Shown here piece by piece: positions 4,773-56,126 of a stretch of 64,000 nt of DNA (position 1 is its first letter; each line of letters begins with the position of its first letter). The stretch is from an uncultured Candidatus Saccharibacteria bacterium. Its GTDB lineage: Bacteria > Patescibacteriota > Minisyncoccia > Portnoybacterales > UBA2143. The stretch lies in the NCBI GenBank assembly GCA_964403725.1, contig CAYOHI010000003.1, forward strand, positions 14,374 to 78,373, in the 5' to 3' direction. Below the pieces are notes generated by a model that did not search any database, was not told the origin of the DNA, and worked only from the letters and a program-made list of their open reading frames with translations. The translations under genes and the position numbers were made by a program.

Positions 4773-4843
4773 TACCCCGCAAGGGAATCGAACCCCTATC
4801 AATTGGTTAAAAGCCAACTGCTCTACCACTGAGCTAGCGGGGC
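4773..4843 (-). tRNA. tRNA-Lys (anticodon UUU)
   Basis: The complement reads GCCCCGC-TA-GCTC-AGTGGTA-GAGC-A-GTTGG-CTTTTAA-CCAAT-...-TTCGATT-...-GCGGGGT-A. This is a cloverleaf with a TTCGATT T-loop and anticodon-loop CU-UUU-AA. No CCA is encoded. Confidence 0.8.
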
Positions 4844-6559: not shown

Positions 6560-7381
6560 TTATACCTCTATTATTTCCTTCAGAACTGCTTTTTCTTGAA
6601 TTTTAATTGCGCCTGAGGCAACTAGAATTTTAAAGATTACCCAAGTTAAGAAAATACTTATCCACATAAATGGAAAGCCAATGACTTTTAAGGCAAAGAA
6701 AATACCGACAGCTGAACCTAAAGTCAAATATTCCTTGTATGCCTGGCTCTGCTTGTTAATTTCAGAATTTATCTGGTTATACAAATCATCCTTAATTTCA
6801 TCACTGGCAATTGTCACATTCATATTTAAATCAATGCCGAATTGCTGGGCAACTTGATTAACTGGCAGGCTTCCCTCAATGTTTCCGATTATCGGACCGA
6901 TTACTTTGTCAAAAATTGGCCTTGGAATAGTAATTTGATTCTGGCCAGTTAAAGCTAAAGGAGAAAAGTAGTATGCTGTAGCAATTAACAGAGCTAGACC
7001 TGTCATAACTAGAGGCAATCCTCTTTTTAAGACCATGACTGCATCAATCTTAATTCTTCCTCTTTTCTCATCAACAGCTCTCTGTGATCCTAAATGAAAA
7101 AGAAGAAAAGCAACTATCAGGGCTAACAAGTATTCTACTTTAAATCCAAAAGGGAAAAGAAAGCTAATTAAGACAAAAAACAATGTAATTAAAAGAATTG
7201 TCTTTGATTTGGTTAAAAGCCAATTCAAACTTAAGAAAATTAACAGAACAAAAAAACCAATAACTGGTAAGACCCAATTGCCGTCTTTAGATAAGATATT
7301 TGACAGTCCAGCCCAAGCAGCAGTCGCTACTAAAGTGGTCAGACCGATAATAACTGATTGAGTAACCCTATTTTTTTGCAT
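6560..7381 (-). CDS. hypothetical polytopic membrane protein
   Basis: Multiple TM helices. No motif recognised. First gene downstream of the polysaccharide locus. Confidence 0.4.
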
Positions 7382-37345: not shown

Positions 37346-37417
37346 CAGCCCCACGGGGAATCGAACCCCGGTTACCAGAATGAGAATCTGGCGTCCTAGC
37401 CACTAGACGATGGGGCC
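37346..37417 (-). tRNA. tRNA-Glu (anticodon CUC)
   Basis: The complement reads GGCCCCA-TC-GTCT-AGTGGCTAG-GACG-C-CAGAT-TCTCATT-CTGG..CGGGG-TTCGATT-CCCCG-TGGGGCT-G. The anticodon loop is UU-CUC-AU. No CCA is encoded. Confidence 0.8.
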
Positions 37418-38726: not shown

Positions 38727-40451
38727 TTATTGCGGTGGTATTTCTAAATAGTTGAATAGGTATTCAGCTAATCTCTTAAAGACAGGACTAACTGAATCCG
38801 AGGCAAAGCGGATGCCTTGAGGCTTGTCTAATTTTACTAAAATGACAAATTCTGGATCAAAAGCGGGAGCATAGCCGACAAAACTGTGGATTGTCTCTTC
38901 TGAATAGCCTCCCTGCTCCATATCAGCCATTTGGGCTGTTCCCGTTTTACCAGCAATATCATAGCCTGTCAAACGTGCTGGTTTCCCATATCCGTTTTCT
39001 ACTACGCTGACCAGCATCTCACTTATCTCTTCTGATGTCTCAGGAGTGATGACCCGGTCAATCAATTCAGGCTGGATGTCTGTTTCTTCTCCATCTGAGT
39101 AGATGATTTTTTCAACTACATAGGGCCTCATCAGCTTGCCGTCATTAGCCAGGGCTCCTATGGCTGCAACCAGTCCTAGCGGAGTCATTGTTATTCCCTG
39201 CCCGAAAGAAATGGTAGCTAAGTTGATTTCTCTGCCCGTGAACAAGTTGTTAATATTCCCTCCTATCTCACCTACCAGATCAACGCCGGTCGGCTGGTCG
39301 AAATTGAATCTCTGGACGTAATTTTGGAAAATCTCTTCACCTACCAATTGCTGGACATAGACTGCTCCGGTATTGAGAGATTTTTCCAATACCTGGGTCA
39401 TGGTTTGCTCGTTATATACCTTCCCGTCAACATTGCTGATATTGCTTCCCTTTATCTGCAGATATCCCCTGTCCATATATACTGAATCTGGGGTGACTTT
39501 GTCAGCATCCAGGCCAATAGCCATAGTAATCGGCTTGAATACAGAGCCTGGCTCATACACTTCTGAGATGGATGGATTAAGAAAGACATCAATGTTTTCT
39601 ACCTTGCCATATTCATTAGGGTCAAATACCGGCCAATTAGCCATAGCCCTGATAGCGCCAGTTTTTGGATCCATGATGATGATGGTGCCGCTTTCAGCTT
39701 TCCATTTCTCAGCCACTTCTTTCAATTCTTTTTCGGCCCTGAACTGAATGTTCTCATCAAGGGTCAAAATGATATCAGCTCCATCTTGAGCCGGTTCAAC
39801 CTGCCTGTTAAGCGAAGGTATCCAATAGCCAGCGGTATCTTTTTCTCCAGCTAAGAATCCAAATCTTCCTTTCAAGTCGTTCTCATAATATCCTTCCAAT
39901 CCATATTGCCCGATTTTTTTCTTATCAACCATACCGACAAAGCCTGTTATATGGCTAGCCAGCGTATTATTCGGATAATATCGCCATTCCTCAGAAGTCA
40001 GGCCAACGCCCGCAGCTTCCAGTTCCTTGACCTTGTCAGCTATTTCCTGATCTACCTTGTATTTCAAAGGTTCATAAGGGTCATCTTTCTTATTGATCCT
40101 TCTTGAAACATCTTCTTTGTCCAAATCGAGTATTTCGACCAGCTTATTGGCCAAACCATCCTTTTCTTCTTCATTGATATCTTGAGGAACCAGATATATT
40201 CTTTGGAATTCCTTGTTGACAGCTAAGGGACAATGATGGTCTTCTTCTCTCTGCTGGCTGGATAGGTCCTGCATGAATATCTCGCCCCTTTGAGGGAAAA
40301 GGGTTGCATAAAGCTTATGCTGGCCTTGGGCTAGGGCGTAATAGTTGTCATATTGAAGGATCTGGAGAATAAACAAGCGGGCAAATACCCCGCTCCCTAA
40401 AAGAAAAATGATGGTTATTAAGAAATATATGCGCCAATTACTTGCCTTCAT
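38727..40451 (-). CDS. ftsI: penicillin-binding protein 2 / FtsI-type transpeptidase
   Basis: N-terminal TM helix. SxxK (GSVFKP), SxN (SLN) and KTG (AGKTGTA) motifs. Positioned between ftsL and murF. Confidence 0.9.
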   Translation of the reverse strand: MKASNWRIYFLITIIFLLGSGVFARLFILQILQYDNYYALAQGQHKLYATLFPQRGEIFMQDLSSQQREEDHHCPLAVNKEFQRIYLVPQDINEEEKDGLANKLVEILDLDKEDVSRRINKKDDPYEPLKYKVDQEIADKVKELEAAGVGLTSEEWRYYPNNTLASHITGFVGMVDKKKIGQYGLEGYYENDLKGRFGFLAGEKDTAGYWIPSLNRQVEPAQDGADIILTLDENIQFRAEKELKEVAEKWKAESGTIIIMDPKTGAIRAMANWPVFDPNEYGKVENIDVFLNPSISEVYEPGSVFKPITMAIGLDADKVTPDSVYMDRGYLQIKGSNISNVDGKVYNEQTMTQVLEKSLNTGAVYVQQLVGEEIFQNYVQRFNFDQPTGVDLVGEIGGNINNLFTGREINLATISFGQGITMTPLGLVAAIGALANDGKLMRPYVVEKIIYSDGEETDIQPELIDRVITPETSEEISEMLVSVVENGYGKPARLTGYDIAGKTGTAQMADMEQGGYSEETIHSFVGYAPAFDPEFVILVKLDKPQGIRFASDSVSPVFKRLAEYLFNYLEIPPQ

Positions 40452-40455
40452 ATGT

Positions 40456-40794
40456 CTATTCTCTAATTGCTACTGCTTTATCTTCACCCAAATATGTTAT
40501 TTCTCCTACTTCAATCATTTTCAGAGAACCAACTAATCTTTCCAAATTAGCTGGTGATTGCCATTGGGCGATATCTATCTCCATTCTTTCTGCTTCAACT
40601 TCAAGCTGACTTATTTTTTTCTGGTGGTCCCTAATTTCAAAATTACAACTAACCAAACTATTGGTTTGGAATAGATAGAGGAATGATAAGGCGACAACTG
40701 AAAAAGTAATCAAAACGCTTAATATGGCTAAACCGCGATTATGTTTAGATCCACAGAATTTTTTTGATTTGATACAGTGATTTTTGACAGTCAT
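40456..40794 (-). CDS. ftsL: cell division protein FtsL
   Basis: 112 aa. A single TM helix followed by a coiled coil (KKISQLEVEAERMEIDIAQ). Canonical position between rsmH and ftsI. Confidence 0.7.
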   Translation of the reverse strand: MTVKNHCIKSKKFCGSKHNRGLAILSVLITFSVVALSFLYLFQTNSLVSCNFEIRDHQKKISQLEVEAERMEIDIAQWQSPANLERLVGSLKMIEVGEITYLGEDKAVAIRE

Positions 40795-40795
40795 C

Positions 40796-41659
40796 TTATA
40801 TCCTTATTCCGGCCCGGAGTTTGGCGCTCCGGCTCCTCTTATTTATTTCAATTTCCTCTGGGCTTGGCCCAATTGGTTTTTTAGTTAAGATTTTTAAATG
40901 ATCCTTGCGGGCTGATTCTCTGAAGAAATTCTTAACGATCCTGTCTTCTAAAGAATGAAATGAAATTACTACCAGTCGCCCACCTTTTTCTAAAAGTTCC
41001 AGAGCCTGCGGCAAGGCTTTCTCTAGATTATTCAATTCATCATTAACTGCTATTCTCAAAGCCTGGAAGGTTTTGGTAGCAAAATGTATCTTGCCATGCC
41101 TGTATCCGCTCGGAACCGCTCTTTTGATAAGATCTACTAATTGGTCAGTTGTCTTGATTTGCCTATTCTGTCTTTCTCTGTGAATTATCTCAGCGATCCT
41201 TCTGGCAAACCTTTCTTCTCCATATTCTCTAAATATTCTAATTAATTCATCCTTGGTCCATTGGTTAATGATATCCTCAGCTGTTAATCCGTGATCTGAG
41301 CAATTCATTTTCAATGGCTCGTCTACCTTAAAAGTGAATCCCCGACCACTTTTATCAAAGTGCCAAGACGAGATACCAAGGTCCAGCAATATACCGTTAA
41401 TTCTATGAAATTCATTTTTCTCTGCTATTTCCTTTAAATTATTGAAATTGTCTTTTATTAAAACCAGTCTTTCATTTTTAGGGGCTTGTTTTAGGACTTC
41501 CTTGTCTTGTTCTATTCCTAAAACTTTTCCATCGGGCTTGCTCTTTTCTAAAATTGCCAAACTATGCCCACCGAATCCAAAAGTGCAATCTATGAAATTC
41601 TCGTTACTCTTTGGATCAAGATATTCTAAGGTTTCTTTTAATAGGGCTGGTACGTGCAT
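40796..41659 (-). CDS. rsmH: 16S rRNA (cytosine1402-N4)-methyltransferase
   Basis: MHVPALLKETLEYL...DCTFGFGGHS is the conserved RsmH/MraW N-terminus and SAM motif. Confidence 0.95.
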   Translation of the reverse strand: MHVPALLKETLEYLDPKSNENFIDCTFGFGGHSLAILEKSKPDGKVLGIEQDKEVLKQAPKNERLVLIKDNFNNLKEIAEKNEFHRINGILLDLGISSWHFDKSGRGFTFKVDEPLKMNCSDHGLTAEDIINQWTKDELIRIFREYGEERFARRIAEIIHRERQNRQIKTTDQLVDLIKRAVPSGYRHGKIHFATKTFQALRIAVNDELNNLEKALPQALELLEKGGRLVVISFHSLEDRIVKNFFRESARKDHLKILTKKPIGPSPEEIEINKRSRSAKLRAGIRI

Positions 41660-41660
41660 A

Positions 41661-42092
41661 TTACAGACCCAACTCTCCTAATTTACCTGCCAGATCTCCA
41701 ACTTCTTTTTCAGCTTTTTGCCTGTAATTATCCCATTTGTCTTCTGACCAGATTTCCAGACGATTATACAGACCAATGACAACCGCATTCTTTTTCAAAG
41801 ATGCATATTTTTTTAAGTAATCTGGGATTAGGATTCTTCCTAATCTATCAAAGTTTACAGACATCGCTCCGGCTAGCATGACTCTGGCAAAGCTCCTGGC
41901 TTCAACCTGGCTAGCTGGCAGCTTGCCTAACTTGTCAGCCATGTTTTCCCATTCTTTTAAAGAGTATAAAACCAGACAATTATCAATTCCACGGGTAATG
42001 ACAGCTCCCTTGCTAAAGGAAGGCCTAAATTTAGCTGGAACAGCCAATCTTTTCTTAGTGTCTATTGTATGTTTGTATTCTCCTATGAGCAT
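41661..42092 (-). CDS. mraZ: transcriptional regulator MraZ
   Basis: Two MraZ (SpoVT/AbrB-like) repeats (DTKKRLAVPAKFR and DRLGRILIPDYLKK). The start was set at the ATG (MLIGEYKH), matching canonical MraZ N-termini. The ORF track's TTG start is 15 nt upstream. Confidence 0.85.
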   Translation of the reverse strand: MLIGEYKHTIDTKKRLAVPAKFRPSFSKGAVITRGIDNCLVLYSLKEWENMADKLGKLPASQVEARSFARVMLAGAMSVNFDRLGRILIPDYLKKYASLKKNAVVIGLYNRLEIWSEDKWDNYRQKAEKEVGDLAGKLGELGL

Positions 42093-42097
42093 GTTAG

Positions 42098-42289
42098 TTA
42101 TCCACAATTACCCTTGTTTATCCCCACTTTTATCCACAATTGATTACCTTACATCCATTATATGTTACTAATTATTCCCTGTCAAACACTCAAAACCCAC
42201 TTATTTTGCTGTTAAGAAAAATACAAAAATGGCTTATTCAAGCCATTTTATGTAAAAACACCGTATTTTCTATCCACATATTATCCCCA
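42098..42289 (+). promoter_or_regulatory. cluster of DnaA-box-like 9-mers (TTATCCACA) upstream of mraZ. Candidate DnaA-regulated dcw promoter, MraZ operator, or replication-related element.
   Basis: TTATCCACA at 42098-42106 and 42130-42138 are perfect matches to the E. coli consensus. TTATCCCCA at 42118-42126 and 42281-42289, and CTATCCACA at 42270-42278, match at 8 of 9 positions. All are in the same orientation and separated by AT-rich DNA. Confidence 0.5.
42229..42248 (-). terminator. rho-independent terminator of the 42281-42730 gene
   Basis: AATGGCTT-ATTC-AAGCCATT is a perfect 8-bp hairpin. The minus strand then continues TTTTTGTATTTTT. Confidence 0.6.
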
Positions 42290-42730
42290 TTTACGCTTCA
42301 AGGCGTAAAAAGAGATTAAAATTATCAATATTAAGGCTGGCAAACCTTGCCAAAAACTCAATCCAGACCAATAGTGGATAGTATTGTGAAAACCTATCAA
42401 TGGTTTTAATGATTCTAAATTTAAATTAACATAGGCAAAATTAAGGAAATCAGGAAAGATCGACACCCCAGCACCAAGAAATATTAATTCTCTTTTCTTT
42501 CTAGGATATTTTAAAGATAACAATATTACTATAATTATTCCTATTAAAAGATCTATCCCTATCTTGATCAAATCATTAAAGCCTTCTAAAGCAACCTTAT
42601 CTAGATAATCCCAATGAGGTAGAAAGTCTAATAAGTAATGACTCGCTAAAGCCAAAATAAAAACGGACCAGACTCTTTTGGCCCGTATTCCAACAACTGA
42701 ACCAACTAACATATGTGGAAAAAGTATCAT
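42281..42730 (-). CDS. membrane-bound metal-dependent hydrolase-like protein (DUF457/YdjM-like)
   Basis: Small polytopic membrane protein with conserved His residues (HMLVGS..., SHYLLDFLPHWD) typical of the YdjM family. Confidence 0.45.
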   Translation of the reverse strand: MILFPHMLVGSVVGIRAKRVWSVFILALASHYLLDFLPHWDYLDKVALEGFNDLIKIGIDLLIGIIIVILLSLKYPRKKRELIFLGAGVSIFPDFLNFAYVNLNLESLKPLIGFHNTIHYWSGLSFWQGLPALILIILISFYALKRKWG

Positions 42731-42763: not shown

Positions 42764-43339
42764 TTAAATTTTTAACCTATTGATTAATTTCTCATGGGGC
42801 TTTTCCAAGACATCCCTTAAGAACCGATCAAACATATCATATCGATATTTAAAGTCTTCGCTTGAAAGAAGCACATAATCGATTTCCTTACCTACTTCTG
42901 CTTCTAAATCTCTTAGAAAACCAGAGAGATTTTTCTTCTTAACACTATCCCCGACTATTAAAAGATCTACTCTTGTGTTATCAGCATCAACAAAGATACC
43001 AGAGAGGATAGCTAAGCTAATTTTCCCGATACTTCTTAATCTCTTTAATATTCTTTCTTTAGAAGCAGGACTAGACTTTAGAACTAGGGTTTTTAGTTCC
43101 TTGTAAAAGACAAACCCGGGATTTATTGAATAATACTTCTTATTCCTCTTAACTCGACTATTGATGAATTTGATGCTTTCTAATTTCTTAATTTGTCTCT
43201 GACAGGCGGATGAATCACTCCTGATTCTTTTAGCTATCTCCTGTAAGTAAAAAGATTGACCTTTGTTGCGCAAAAACAACTTTAGCAATCTAACTTTAAC
43301 TGGAGAATCAAAAAGCTGTTCCAAGATTTCTTTACCCAT
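42764..43339 (-). CDS. winged-helix transcriptional regulator with C-terminal nucleotidyltransferase-like domain
   Basis: N-terminal ArsR/MarR-like wHTH (LQEIAKRIRSDSSACQRQIKKLESIKFI). The C-terminal part has a G..D.D-like pattern (LSGIFVDADNTRVDLLIVGD). Confidence 0.45.
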   Translation of the reverse strand: MGKEILEQLFDSPVKVRLLKLFLRNKGQSFYLQEIAKRIRSDSSACQRQIKKLESIKFINSRVKRNKKYYSINPGFVFYKELKTLVLKSSPASKERILKRLRSIGKISLAILSGIFVDADNTRVDLLIVGDSVKKKNLSGFLRDLEAEVGKEIDYVLLSSEDFKYRYDMFDRFLRDVLEKPHEKLINRLKI

Positions 43340-53372: not shown

Positions 53373-53447
53373 TGGCAGGCGCGGAGGGACTCGAACCCCC
53401 AGGATCGGTTTTGGAGACCGACCGTTTACCAGTTAACGGACGCGCCC
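53373..53447 (-). tRNA. tRNA-Trp (anticodon CCA), with the 3' CCA encoded
   Basis: The complement reads GGGCGCG...TCGGT-CTCCAAA-ACCGA...GGTTCGAGTCC...CGCGCCT-G-CCA. The anticodon loop is CU-CCA-AA. Confidence 0.8.
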
Positions 53448-55171: not shown

Positions 55172-55253
55172 TGGGCGGTGAGGGACTCGAACCCCCGTAG
55201 TCCGAAGACGTCAGGTTTACAGCCTGATGCAATTGCCGCTATGCGAACCGCCC
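55172..55253 (-). tRNA. tRNA-Tyr (anticodon GUA), type II with long variable arm
   Basis: The complement reads GGGCGGT...TCAGG-CTGTAAA-CCTGA-CGTCTTCGGACTACG-GGGGG-TTCGAGT-CCCTC-ACCGCCC-A. Confidence 0.8.
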
Positions 55254-56052: not shown

Positions 56053-56126
56053 AGCCGAGGAGAGGATTCGAACCCCCAAAACCTTCGCTTTACAAAAGCG
56101 CTGCTCTACCGTTGAGCTACCTCGGC
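56053..56126 (-). tRNA. tRNA-Thr (anticodon UGU)
   Basis: The complement reads GCCGAGG-TA-GCTC-AACGGTA-GAGC-A-GCGCT-TTTGTAA-AGCGA-...-TTCGAAT-CCTCT-CCTCGGC-T. The anticodon loop is UU-UGU-AA. The variable/T-stem region is slightly atypical. Confidence 0.7.

Follow-up and report, generated by a model that had tools for sequence, protein, structure and literature searches.

Five 9-mers resembling DnaA boxes, all in one orientation, lie at positions 42098–42289 of the window (the whole 64-kb stretch of DNA analysed) immediately upstream of mraZ, and we consider it most probable (with a probability of about 0.78) that they constitute the operator of the MraZ autorepressor encoded directly downstream. 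Judged by its sequence, the array is most likely a control element of an already known kind whose repeat here happens to spell the DnaA-box sequence, and because MraZ operators are such a known kind, the finding is largely ordinary. MraZ is among the most widely conserved bacterial transcription factors, with its engagement of DNA resolved structurally only in 2026, on the four-box operator of Mycoplasma (PMC12957436). The original prediction had presented the array chiefly as a cluster of DnaA boxes. Its literal sequence match holds, but the emphasis was misleading, an MraZ operator being the better supported reading. This operator had also been named as a candidate, and it is favoured by the position at the promoter, the sense orientation, a 10-nt lattice of cores, recurrence in 69 of 81 related loci, likeness to the operator of E. 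coli and the conserved contact residues of the protein.

On the forward strand, the 9-mers read TTATCCACA at 42098 and 42130, TTATCCCCA at 42118 and 42281, and CTATCCACA at 42270, in agreement with the earlier description of five same-strand copies, two of them perfect and three matching at 8 of 9 positions. As mraZ lies on the minus strand, the boxes read in its sense as TGTGGATAA or TGGGGATAA, and as TGTGGATAG in the case of distal box D2. The window as a whole is not enriched for such sequences (24 matches with at most one mismatch to TTATCCACA versus 19 expected); the exceptional feature is their clustering, with a maximum same-strand count of 5 in any 192 bp. Among 200 first-order Markov sequences the largest same-strand cluster held three matches, and this was reached in 2 of the 200. 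The Poisson probability of a five-box cluster was 1.3e-10 for any one stretch of 192 bp and, with Bonferroni correction, 1.6e-5, bearing out the earlier claim that the cluster was unlikely to have arisen by chance. When the 64 kb were scanned with a matrix built from relatives, no second cluster was found.

The boxes fall into two groups, two located 5′ of a hairpin and three located 3′ of a promoter, with all of these elements read on the minus strand. Distal box D1 (TGGGGATAA, 42281..42289) contains a TAA that is the stop codon of the upstream ORF (42281-42730), and is followed 11 nt later, with two bases between them, by D2 (TGTGGATAG, 42270..42278); D2 and D1 lie 140-151 bp upstream of box 1. 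Between this doublet and the promoter is a terminator-like hairpin (42226..42249), AAAATGGCTT-GAAT-AAGCCATTTT followed by a T-run, with a folding energy of -13.3 kcal/mol (z = -4.07), the only hairpin of its kind in the window; its stem is 10 bp long, rather than the 8 bp originally given. The mraZ (dcw) promoter, TTGACA-17-TATAAT at 42185-42157, is a perfect sigma-70 consensus, its -35 (42180..42185) and -10 (42157..42162) hexamers matching at 12 of 12 positions across a 17-nt spacer, and the usual promoter spacing would place the start of transcription at ~42150. Proximal box 1 (TGTGGATAA, 42130..42138) begins eighteen nt past the -10, at about +12 from this predicted start. In box 2 (GTGGGGATAA, 42118..42127) the TGG core stands exactly 10 nt after that of box 1, while box 3 (TGTGGATAA, 42098..42106) follows box 1 by 32 nt and is separated from the ATG by CTAAC, a gap of five nt where six had been reported. 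Boxes 1-3, which with the doublet make five direct repeats in the sense of mraZ, would thus span about +12 to +52 of the predicted transcript, and lie between the -10 and the ATG of the mraZ-led dcw operon. An Rfam search at gathering thresholds gave five tRNAs as its only matches in the window, and no match in the leader of mraZ.

The gene that follows (41661..42092, minus strand, ATG start) encodes a protein of 143 aa with a Pfam MraZ match of 6.2e-36, presumed to be the cognate repressor. Its ATG start is confirmed by its homologues, since nearly all of them are likewise 143 aa long. Downstream on the same strand are rsmH (40796-41659; Methyltransf_5, 4e-103), an ftsL-like ORF assigned by its position only (40456-40794, without a Pfam hit) and the ftsI/PBP gene, encoding a class B PBP (38727-40451; Transpeptidase, 3e-75, together with PBP_dimer); these three (38727..41659) are presumed to be the regulated genes. 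The close MraZ homologues come from MAGs; those with a source name are labelled Patescibacteria, Parcubacteria or Portnoybacteria. Across 34 MraZ homologues, D11, K13, R15, D82 and R86 are invariant. The MraZ of the window aligns without gaps to that of M. genitalium (9qlr) over residues 1-128, with identical numbering, and possesses both DXXXR motifs and the base-contact residues K13, R15 and R86, as would be expected of a cognate MraZ. Two genes upstream of mraZ, a protein with a weak HTH_20 match is encoded (42764-43339).

Conservation was assessed in 80 mraZ loci from species-representative genomes (58-86% MraZ identity), giving 81 with the window; the counts below treat these loci singly and ignore their shared ancestry. 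Within the 200 nt upstream of mraZ, TGTGGAT occurred 103 times versus 0.8 expected, in 61 loci, and with a sense to antisense ratio of 103:5. An iterated matrix, built on 301 boxes, gave a-t-T-G-[T/G]-G-G-A-[T/A]-A-A, and contains the T-G-[T/G]-G-G that corresponds to the GTG(G/T) or TGGG core of MraZ operators. Box density was 12.5 per kb in the 300 nt upstream of mraZ versus 0.46 per kb over the remainder of the loci, with a sharp peak at -200 to 0 relative to mraZ, and over the 81 loci 301 boxes were in the sense of the gene versus 8 antisense.

The arrangement of the boxes is conserved together with their sequence. The distance from box 1 to box 3 was 31-32 nt in 69 of the 81 Patescibacteria mraZ loci, so that the repeats and their spacing withstand the alignment of related upstream regions that had been proposed as a check. 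Measured from box 1, most of these 69 loci have the start of the -35 at -45 +/-1, the end of the -10 at -16 +/-1 and box 2 at +10 to +12, and GTGG occupies the position of box 1 in all 69. By contrast, anything from 44 to 489 nt separates the array from the ATG in the same loci, a variation indicating that it is the promoter, and not the start codon, that anchors the array. Among the 8 closest loci, invariance is confined to the five boxes (D2 in part), the -35, the -10 and the hairpin stem, and the rest of the sequence drifts. The -35 region GTTTGACA is invariant in relatives, and the identical stem sequence was found at the matching place in 11 of 81 loci. D1 shows no change at any of its 9 positions in these 8 loci, L004 among them, where the upstream neighbour is a tRNA and not ORF 42281-42730. 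Within the clade of the window, the invariance of D2 is limited to the T-TGGA of its TGTGGA half, and the part corresponding to DnaA positions 1-3 varies. In 8 loci box 2 reads ATGTTAATAA, a poor fit to both the MraZ core and the DnaA box.

Beneath the 9-mers lies a more regular pattern of GTGG cores. In 37 of 39 loci the TGG cores of boxes 1 and 2 stood 10 nt apart, and this held for box 2 in the form of TGGGGATAA, TGGGATAA or TGGGAAAA. When the 69 loci were aligned with box 1 as zero, GTGG peaks appeared at -28 (in the promoter spacer), -7, +3, +13 and +35, describing a lattice of ~10.5 nt that includes sites without a DnaA-like tail. The cores therefore stand about one helical turn (10 nt) apart, and the lattice is complete except at the -10 hexamer and at one position between boxes 2 and 3. 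The window's own sites at -28 and -7 are degenerate. Outlying lineages (for example L077, L032 and L048) have kept contiguous GTGG arrays at 10 nt and lost the DnaA-like tail: GTGGTGAAT occurs three times in L077, and L032 carries four GTGG at exactly 10 nt.

The distal doublet also recurs. A distal box at least 55 nt upstream of box 1 was present in 59 of 69 loci, the D1-D2 spacing was exactly 11 nt in 35 of 35 strict doublets, and twelve more loci had a degenerate partner at 11 nt. In at least 17 loci with enough room, inspection suggested a terminator-like hairpin and T-run after D2. The distances from D2 to box 1 are clumped, in steps of about 10.8 bp, at 63-64, 73-75, 85, 93-101, 105-107, 116, 125-128, 137-143 (the window, at 140, falls here), 151, 161 and 184 nt, with outliers at 156 and 228. 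These clumps were used for a phasing test in place of single-linkage grouping of the DNA between doublet and promoter, which had put 35 of 47 loci in one group. The 13 clump means gave a best period of about 10.95 nt with R = 0.71, matched by 0.4% of random sets (periods of 10 to 11.5 nt), and all 47 loci gave R ~0.5 at 10.7-11 nt; as the clumps were set after seeing the data and shared ancestry was left uncorrected, the phasing is only suggestive. These data are suggestive of a doublet that keeps to the same helix face as the proximal boxes, irrespective of the intervening DNA. If the phasing is real, such same-face placement would be a requirement of looping or of one large MraZ assembly. 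MraZ rings of 8 to 12 subunits have been described, and looping is not among the described features (PMC12957436).

Comparison with defined MraZ operators supports the assignment. Eraso et al. 2014 reportedly defined the operator at E. coli Pmra as three direct repeats with a GTGGG/TGGGN core. In the sequence taken directly from NC_000913.3, this region reads TAAACT-cctttc-aGTGGGaaattGTGGGgcaaaGTGGGaataagg...ATG, with the repeats after the -10 being aGTGGGaaattGTGGGgcaaaGTGGGaataa, and the Patescibacteria matrix selects these same three repeats. E. coli and the window have in common sense-strand repeats between the -10 and the mraZ ATG, a 10-nt core period and an A-rich 3′ flank. Repeat 3 of E. 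coli (GTGGGAATAA) is one base apart from box 2 of the window (GTGGGGATAA), and TTGTGG is common to E. coli repeat 2 and box 1 of the window. The two differ in that the E. coli repeats are three and contiguous, with no known distal doublet and no DnaA-box matches, whereas in the window only boxes 1 and 2 are contiguous, box 3 follows a skipped lattice position and stands 32 nt from box 1, and a doublet lies 140 nt upstream.

In B. subtilis, three MBRs (GTGG[A/T]G) separated by 4-nt spacers are needed for repression by MraZ, which acts via R15 and R86 (bioRxiv 10.1101/2022.02.09.479790). The window resembles this operator in its GTGG core, 10-nt period, location at the mra promoter and the presence of R15 and R86; it differs in its flank (ATAA versus [A/T]G) and in having a distal site, a feature not described in B. 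subtilis, and the function demonstrated there is predicted here. For M. genitalium, cryo-EM resolved four GTG(G/T) boxes with 6-nt spacers and a start site inside box 1 (PMC12957436; PDB 9qlr, 9qlg, 9sx6), a single subunit of an opened ring touching each box through its K13, R15 and R86, and neighbouring subunits cooperating in binding (PMC12957436). GTG(G/T) boxes on one helix face are common to M. genitalium and the window, as is an MraZ of identical numbering without gaps. The four boxes of M. genitalium are however contiguous, conform to a Mollicutes consensus (AAAGTG[T/G]) that is not DnaA-like, and have no bipartite layout described.

By analogy with these systems, MraZ subunits held in an oligomer would each dock a DNA-binding motif in a GTGG/TGGG core, the cores all facing the same side of the helix, and cooperative occupancy of boxes 1-3 would block initiation or promoter escape at what is a very strong consensus promoter. 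The result would be negative autoregulation of mraZ-rsmH-ftsL-ftsI, with repression as the direction of control predicted from E. coli and B. subtilis. The distal doublet would be part of the same element, acting as a second anchor that probably contacts the same MraZ assembly, and the loop so formed would take in the terminator and the promoter and stabilise repression. Some features sit less easily with an MraZ operator: characterised MraZ operators have no counterpart of the distal doublet or of the gap that separates box 2 from box 3, and boxes 1 and 3 are a perfect DnaA consensus within a conserved block of exactly 9 nt.

The last of these features raises the question of whether DnaA also uses the array. 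DnaA would probably recognise boxes 1 and 3, going by their sequence, and the array could serve both as MraZ operator and as a DnaA target at box 1, box 3 and the distal doublet, in which case the status of the initiator would modulate expression of the division operon through competition or cooperation with MraZ. In favour of this, boxes 1 and 3 are perfect copies of TTATCCACA, the conserved block of the 301 boxes covers the nine DnaA-box positions, its T/A variation falls at the W of TTWTNCACA, and the 11-nt period of D1-D2 recurs beside dnaA in 16 of 80 metagenome loci. We nevertheless judge such dual use to be unlikely. Compared with TTWTNCACA, a consensus from the literature that may not be this lineage's own DnaA box, two of the five boxes (42098 and 42130) fit, two (TTATCCCCA) violate A7, and one violates T1. 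Over the 301 boxes, the equivalent of N5, which DnaA leaves free, is G in 299, a constancy that argues against DnaA specificity, and the equivalent of A7, a strict position for DnaA, is T in 215 and G in 86, so that TGGGG stands for TGTGG in 29% (on the other strand, C in place of A7), systematically in box 2 and D1. D2 is kept only in its TGTGGA half within the window's clade, and the outlying lineages keep the GTGG lattice and drop the DnaA-like tail. The DnaA-dependent control proposed by the original prediction thus retains its consensus match, but is weakened by the invariant N5, by the C at A7 in box 2 and D1, and by the uniform orientation.

A contrast set of 80 loci, obtained by scanning metagenomes for the perfect tandem doublet TGTGGATAA-NN-TGTGGATAA, bears on the same question. 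None of the 80 encoded MraZ, and 16 had DnaA motifs within ~1 kb; these 16 are probably origin or dnaA-promoter clusters. Around the dnaA-linked doublets, which are spread over many phyla, with no known Patescibacteria among them, boxes in the same and opposite orientation numbered 69:54, versus 246:6 in mraZ arrays. N5 varied in 12 cases among the dnaA-linked boxes versus 4 in the mraZ arrays, and TGGGGATAA accounted for 8 of 123 versus 50 of 246. Like the window, oriC and dnaA-promoter clusters can display perfect and one-mismatch matches (here two and three, respectively) and a tandem pair with a 2-bp spacer; unlike them, the window has uniform orientation, a lock to the mraZ promoter, an invariant N5, a substituted A7, no dnaA and no skew switch. 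As a 2-bp-spaced tandem pair like D1-D2 is a normal arrangement next to dnaA in diverse bacteria, co-binding by DnaA is kept as a minority reading.

Control of the mraZ promoter by DnaA alone, with MraZ binding elsewhere or not at all, would account for the match to the DnaA consensus, and DnaA is a known transcription factor in other bacteria, as at gidAB-parAB of P. aeruginosa (PMC13438810). All the observations that count against dual use count equally against DnaA alone, however, and the GTGG lattice reaches sites at -28 and -7 that are not DnaA-like, the position and sequence of the array correspond to the MraZ repeats of E. coli, and the MraZ contact residues are kept, so we regard sole control by DnaA as very unlikely. 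The clustering of five DnaA-like boxes in AT-rich DNA had also suggested a replication origin or a DnaA-titrating (datA-like) locus, a proposal to which we attach next to no likelihood: the boxes have a single orientation, their offset from the mraZ promoter is constant in 69 loci, and in all relatives the array keeps to that promoter. Six-frame translations of the 64-kb window contained no DnaA signature, and GC skew was negative throughout with no switch, in line with the earlier observation that neither a dnaA gene nor a strand-bias switch was nearby. With no DnaA signature, no skew switch and boxes on one strand, identification as oriC was rejected. A different, lineage-specific transcription factor might be sought in the 9-bp extended consensus and the distal doublet, which are not features of characterised MraZ operators, and in the weak HTH_20 protein encoded two genes upstream (42764-43339). 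Yet the array accompanies mraZ even where the upstream neighbours differ (in L004 the neighbour is a tRNA), and it agrees with MraZ operators in GTGG core, period, strand and position; the probability of such a factor is accordingly very low indeed.

A search of the literature on mraZ with DnaA boxes or with Patescibacteria found nothing relevant, and the literature searched contains no description of a Patescibacteria MraZ-box consensus identical to the DnaA box, of an empty lattice position between boxes 2 and 3, or of a conserved, apparently phased distal doublet. A consensus identical to that of DnaA suggests that replication and division control might engage in cross-talk where regulators are very few, and the steps of about one helical turn in the doublet distance point to looping or to an MraZ assembly larger than the known four-subunit complex. 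It is conceivable, though doubtful, that the Patescibacteria MraZ operator converged on or retained the DnaA-box 9-mer, and that MraZ and DnaA share the phased bipartite array; if so, the initiation of replication would be directly coupled to how the division and cell-wall operon is transcribed in very small, regulator-poor genomes. For scans of DnaA boxes or oriC in Patescibacteria, a false positive is to be expected at every mraZ promoter. Elsewhere in the window, a third perfect 9-mer at 6658-6666 stands singly within an ORF (6560-7381), with no partner, and is taken as a chance occurrence.

The hairpin upstream of the mraZ promoter (42226–42249; stem AATGGCTT/AAGCCATT), which occurs once within the 64-kb window, retains its stem sequence, around a loop that varies, in 11 of 81 mraZ loci (the window and 80 from relatives' species-representative genomes). 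In all 11 (the window, L001, L002, L003, L005, L006, L011, L016, L026, L043 and L072), some at just 61–69% MraZ identity, the stem lies upstream of the mraZ promoter and, where the distal doublet of DnaA-like repeats was mapped, 3' of it; no second copy was found elsewhere in the same loci. Such retention at the level of sequence is unusual for a terminator stem, and on that ground the stem might also serve as a protein-binding palindrome.

No Shine-Dalgarno-like GGAGG was found 5' of the mraZ ATG (window 42093–42110). Box 3, the last of three proximal DnaA-like repeats between promoter and ATG, lies 5 nt from the start codon in the window and only 2–7 nt from it in many relatives, and thus overlaps the ribosome-binding region, where its GGA might act as a weak ribosome-binding site. 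At box 2, ATGTTAATAA replaces (G)TGGGGATAA in eight mraZ loci (L007, L026, L040, L050, L052, L075, L079 and L080); this variant, a poor fit to both the GTGG core of MraZ repeats and the DnaA consensus, is kept across several lineages. The divergent locus L077, whose MraZ is 58% identical to that of the window, carries three GTGGTGAAT-type operator repeats with a 10-nt period (about 2400–2500), to which the GTGG[A/T]G repeat type of B. subtilis is the nearer match. The L077 record is titled 'uncultured Gammaproteobacteria'; as bin labels, many of the 'Saccharibacteria' and 'Gammaproteobacteria' titles carried by the loci seem unreliable.

Among 80 metagenome loci (L082–L161) defined by TGTGGATAA-NN-TGTGGATAA, DnaA Walker-A or domain-IV signatures lay no more than about 1 kb from the doublet in 16, and these span GC contents of 0.26–0.65; tandem consensus DnaA boxes with 2-bp spacing are therefore widespread near dnaA. 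The window's third exact copy of TTATCCACA (6658–6666), inside a minus-strand ORF (6560–7381) and with no partner box nearby, is probably a chance match.

Directly upstream of the array, the putative MraZ operator, a minus-strand ORF (42281–42730) encodes a hydrophobic protein of 149 aa that no Pfam family matches. The ORF beyond it (42764–43339, minus strand) matched only HTH_20, below threshold (20.6 bits versus a cut-off of 27). Several close relatives have an upstream ORF with a similar end, sharing C-terminal coding sequence; in L004, a relative's mraZ locus, a tRNA stands in its place. All five tRNA genes of the window (4773–4843, 37346–37417, 53376–53447, 55172–55253 and 56053–56126) and most of its genes are on the minus strand. 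GC skew is negative from end to end, consistent with a single replichore.
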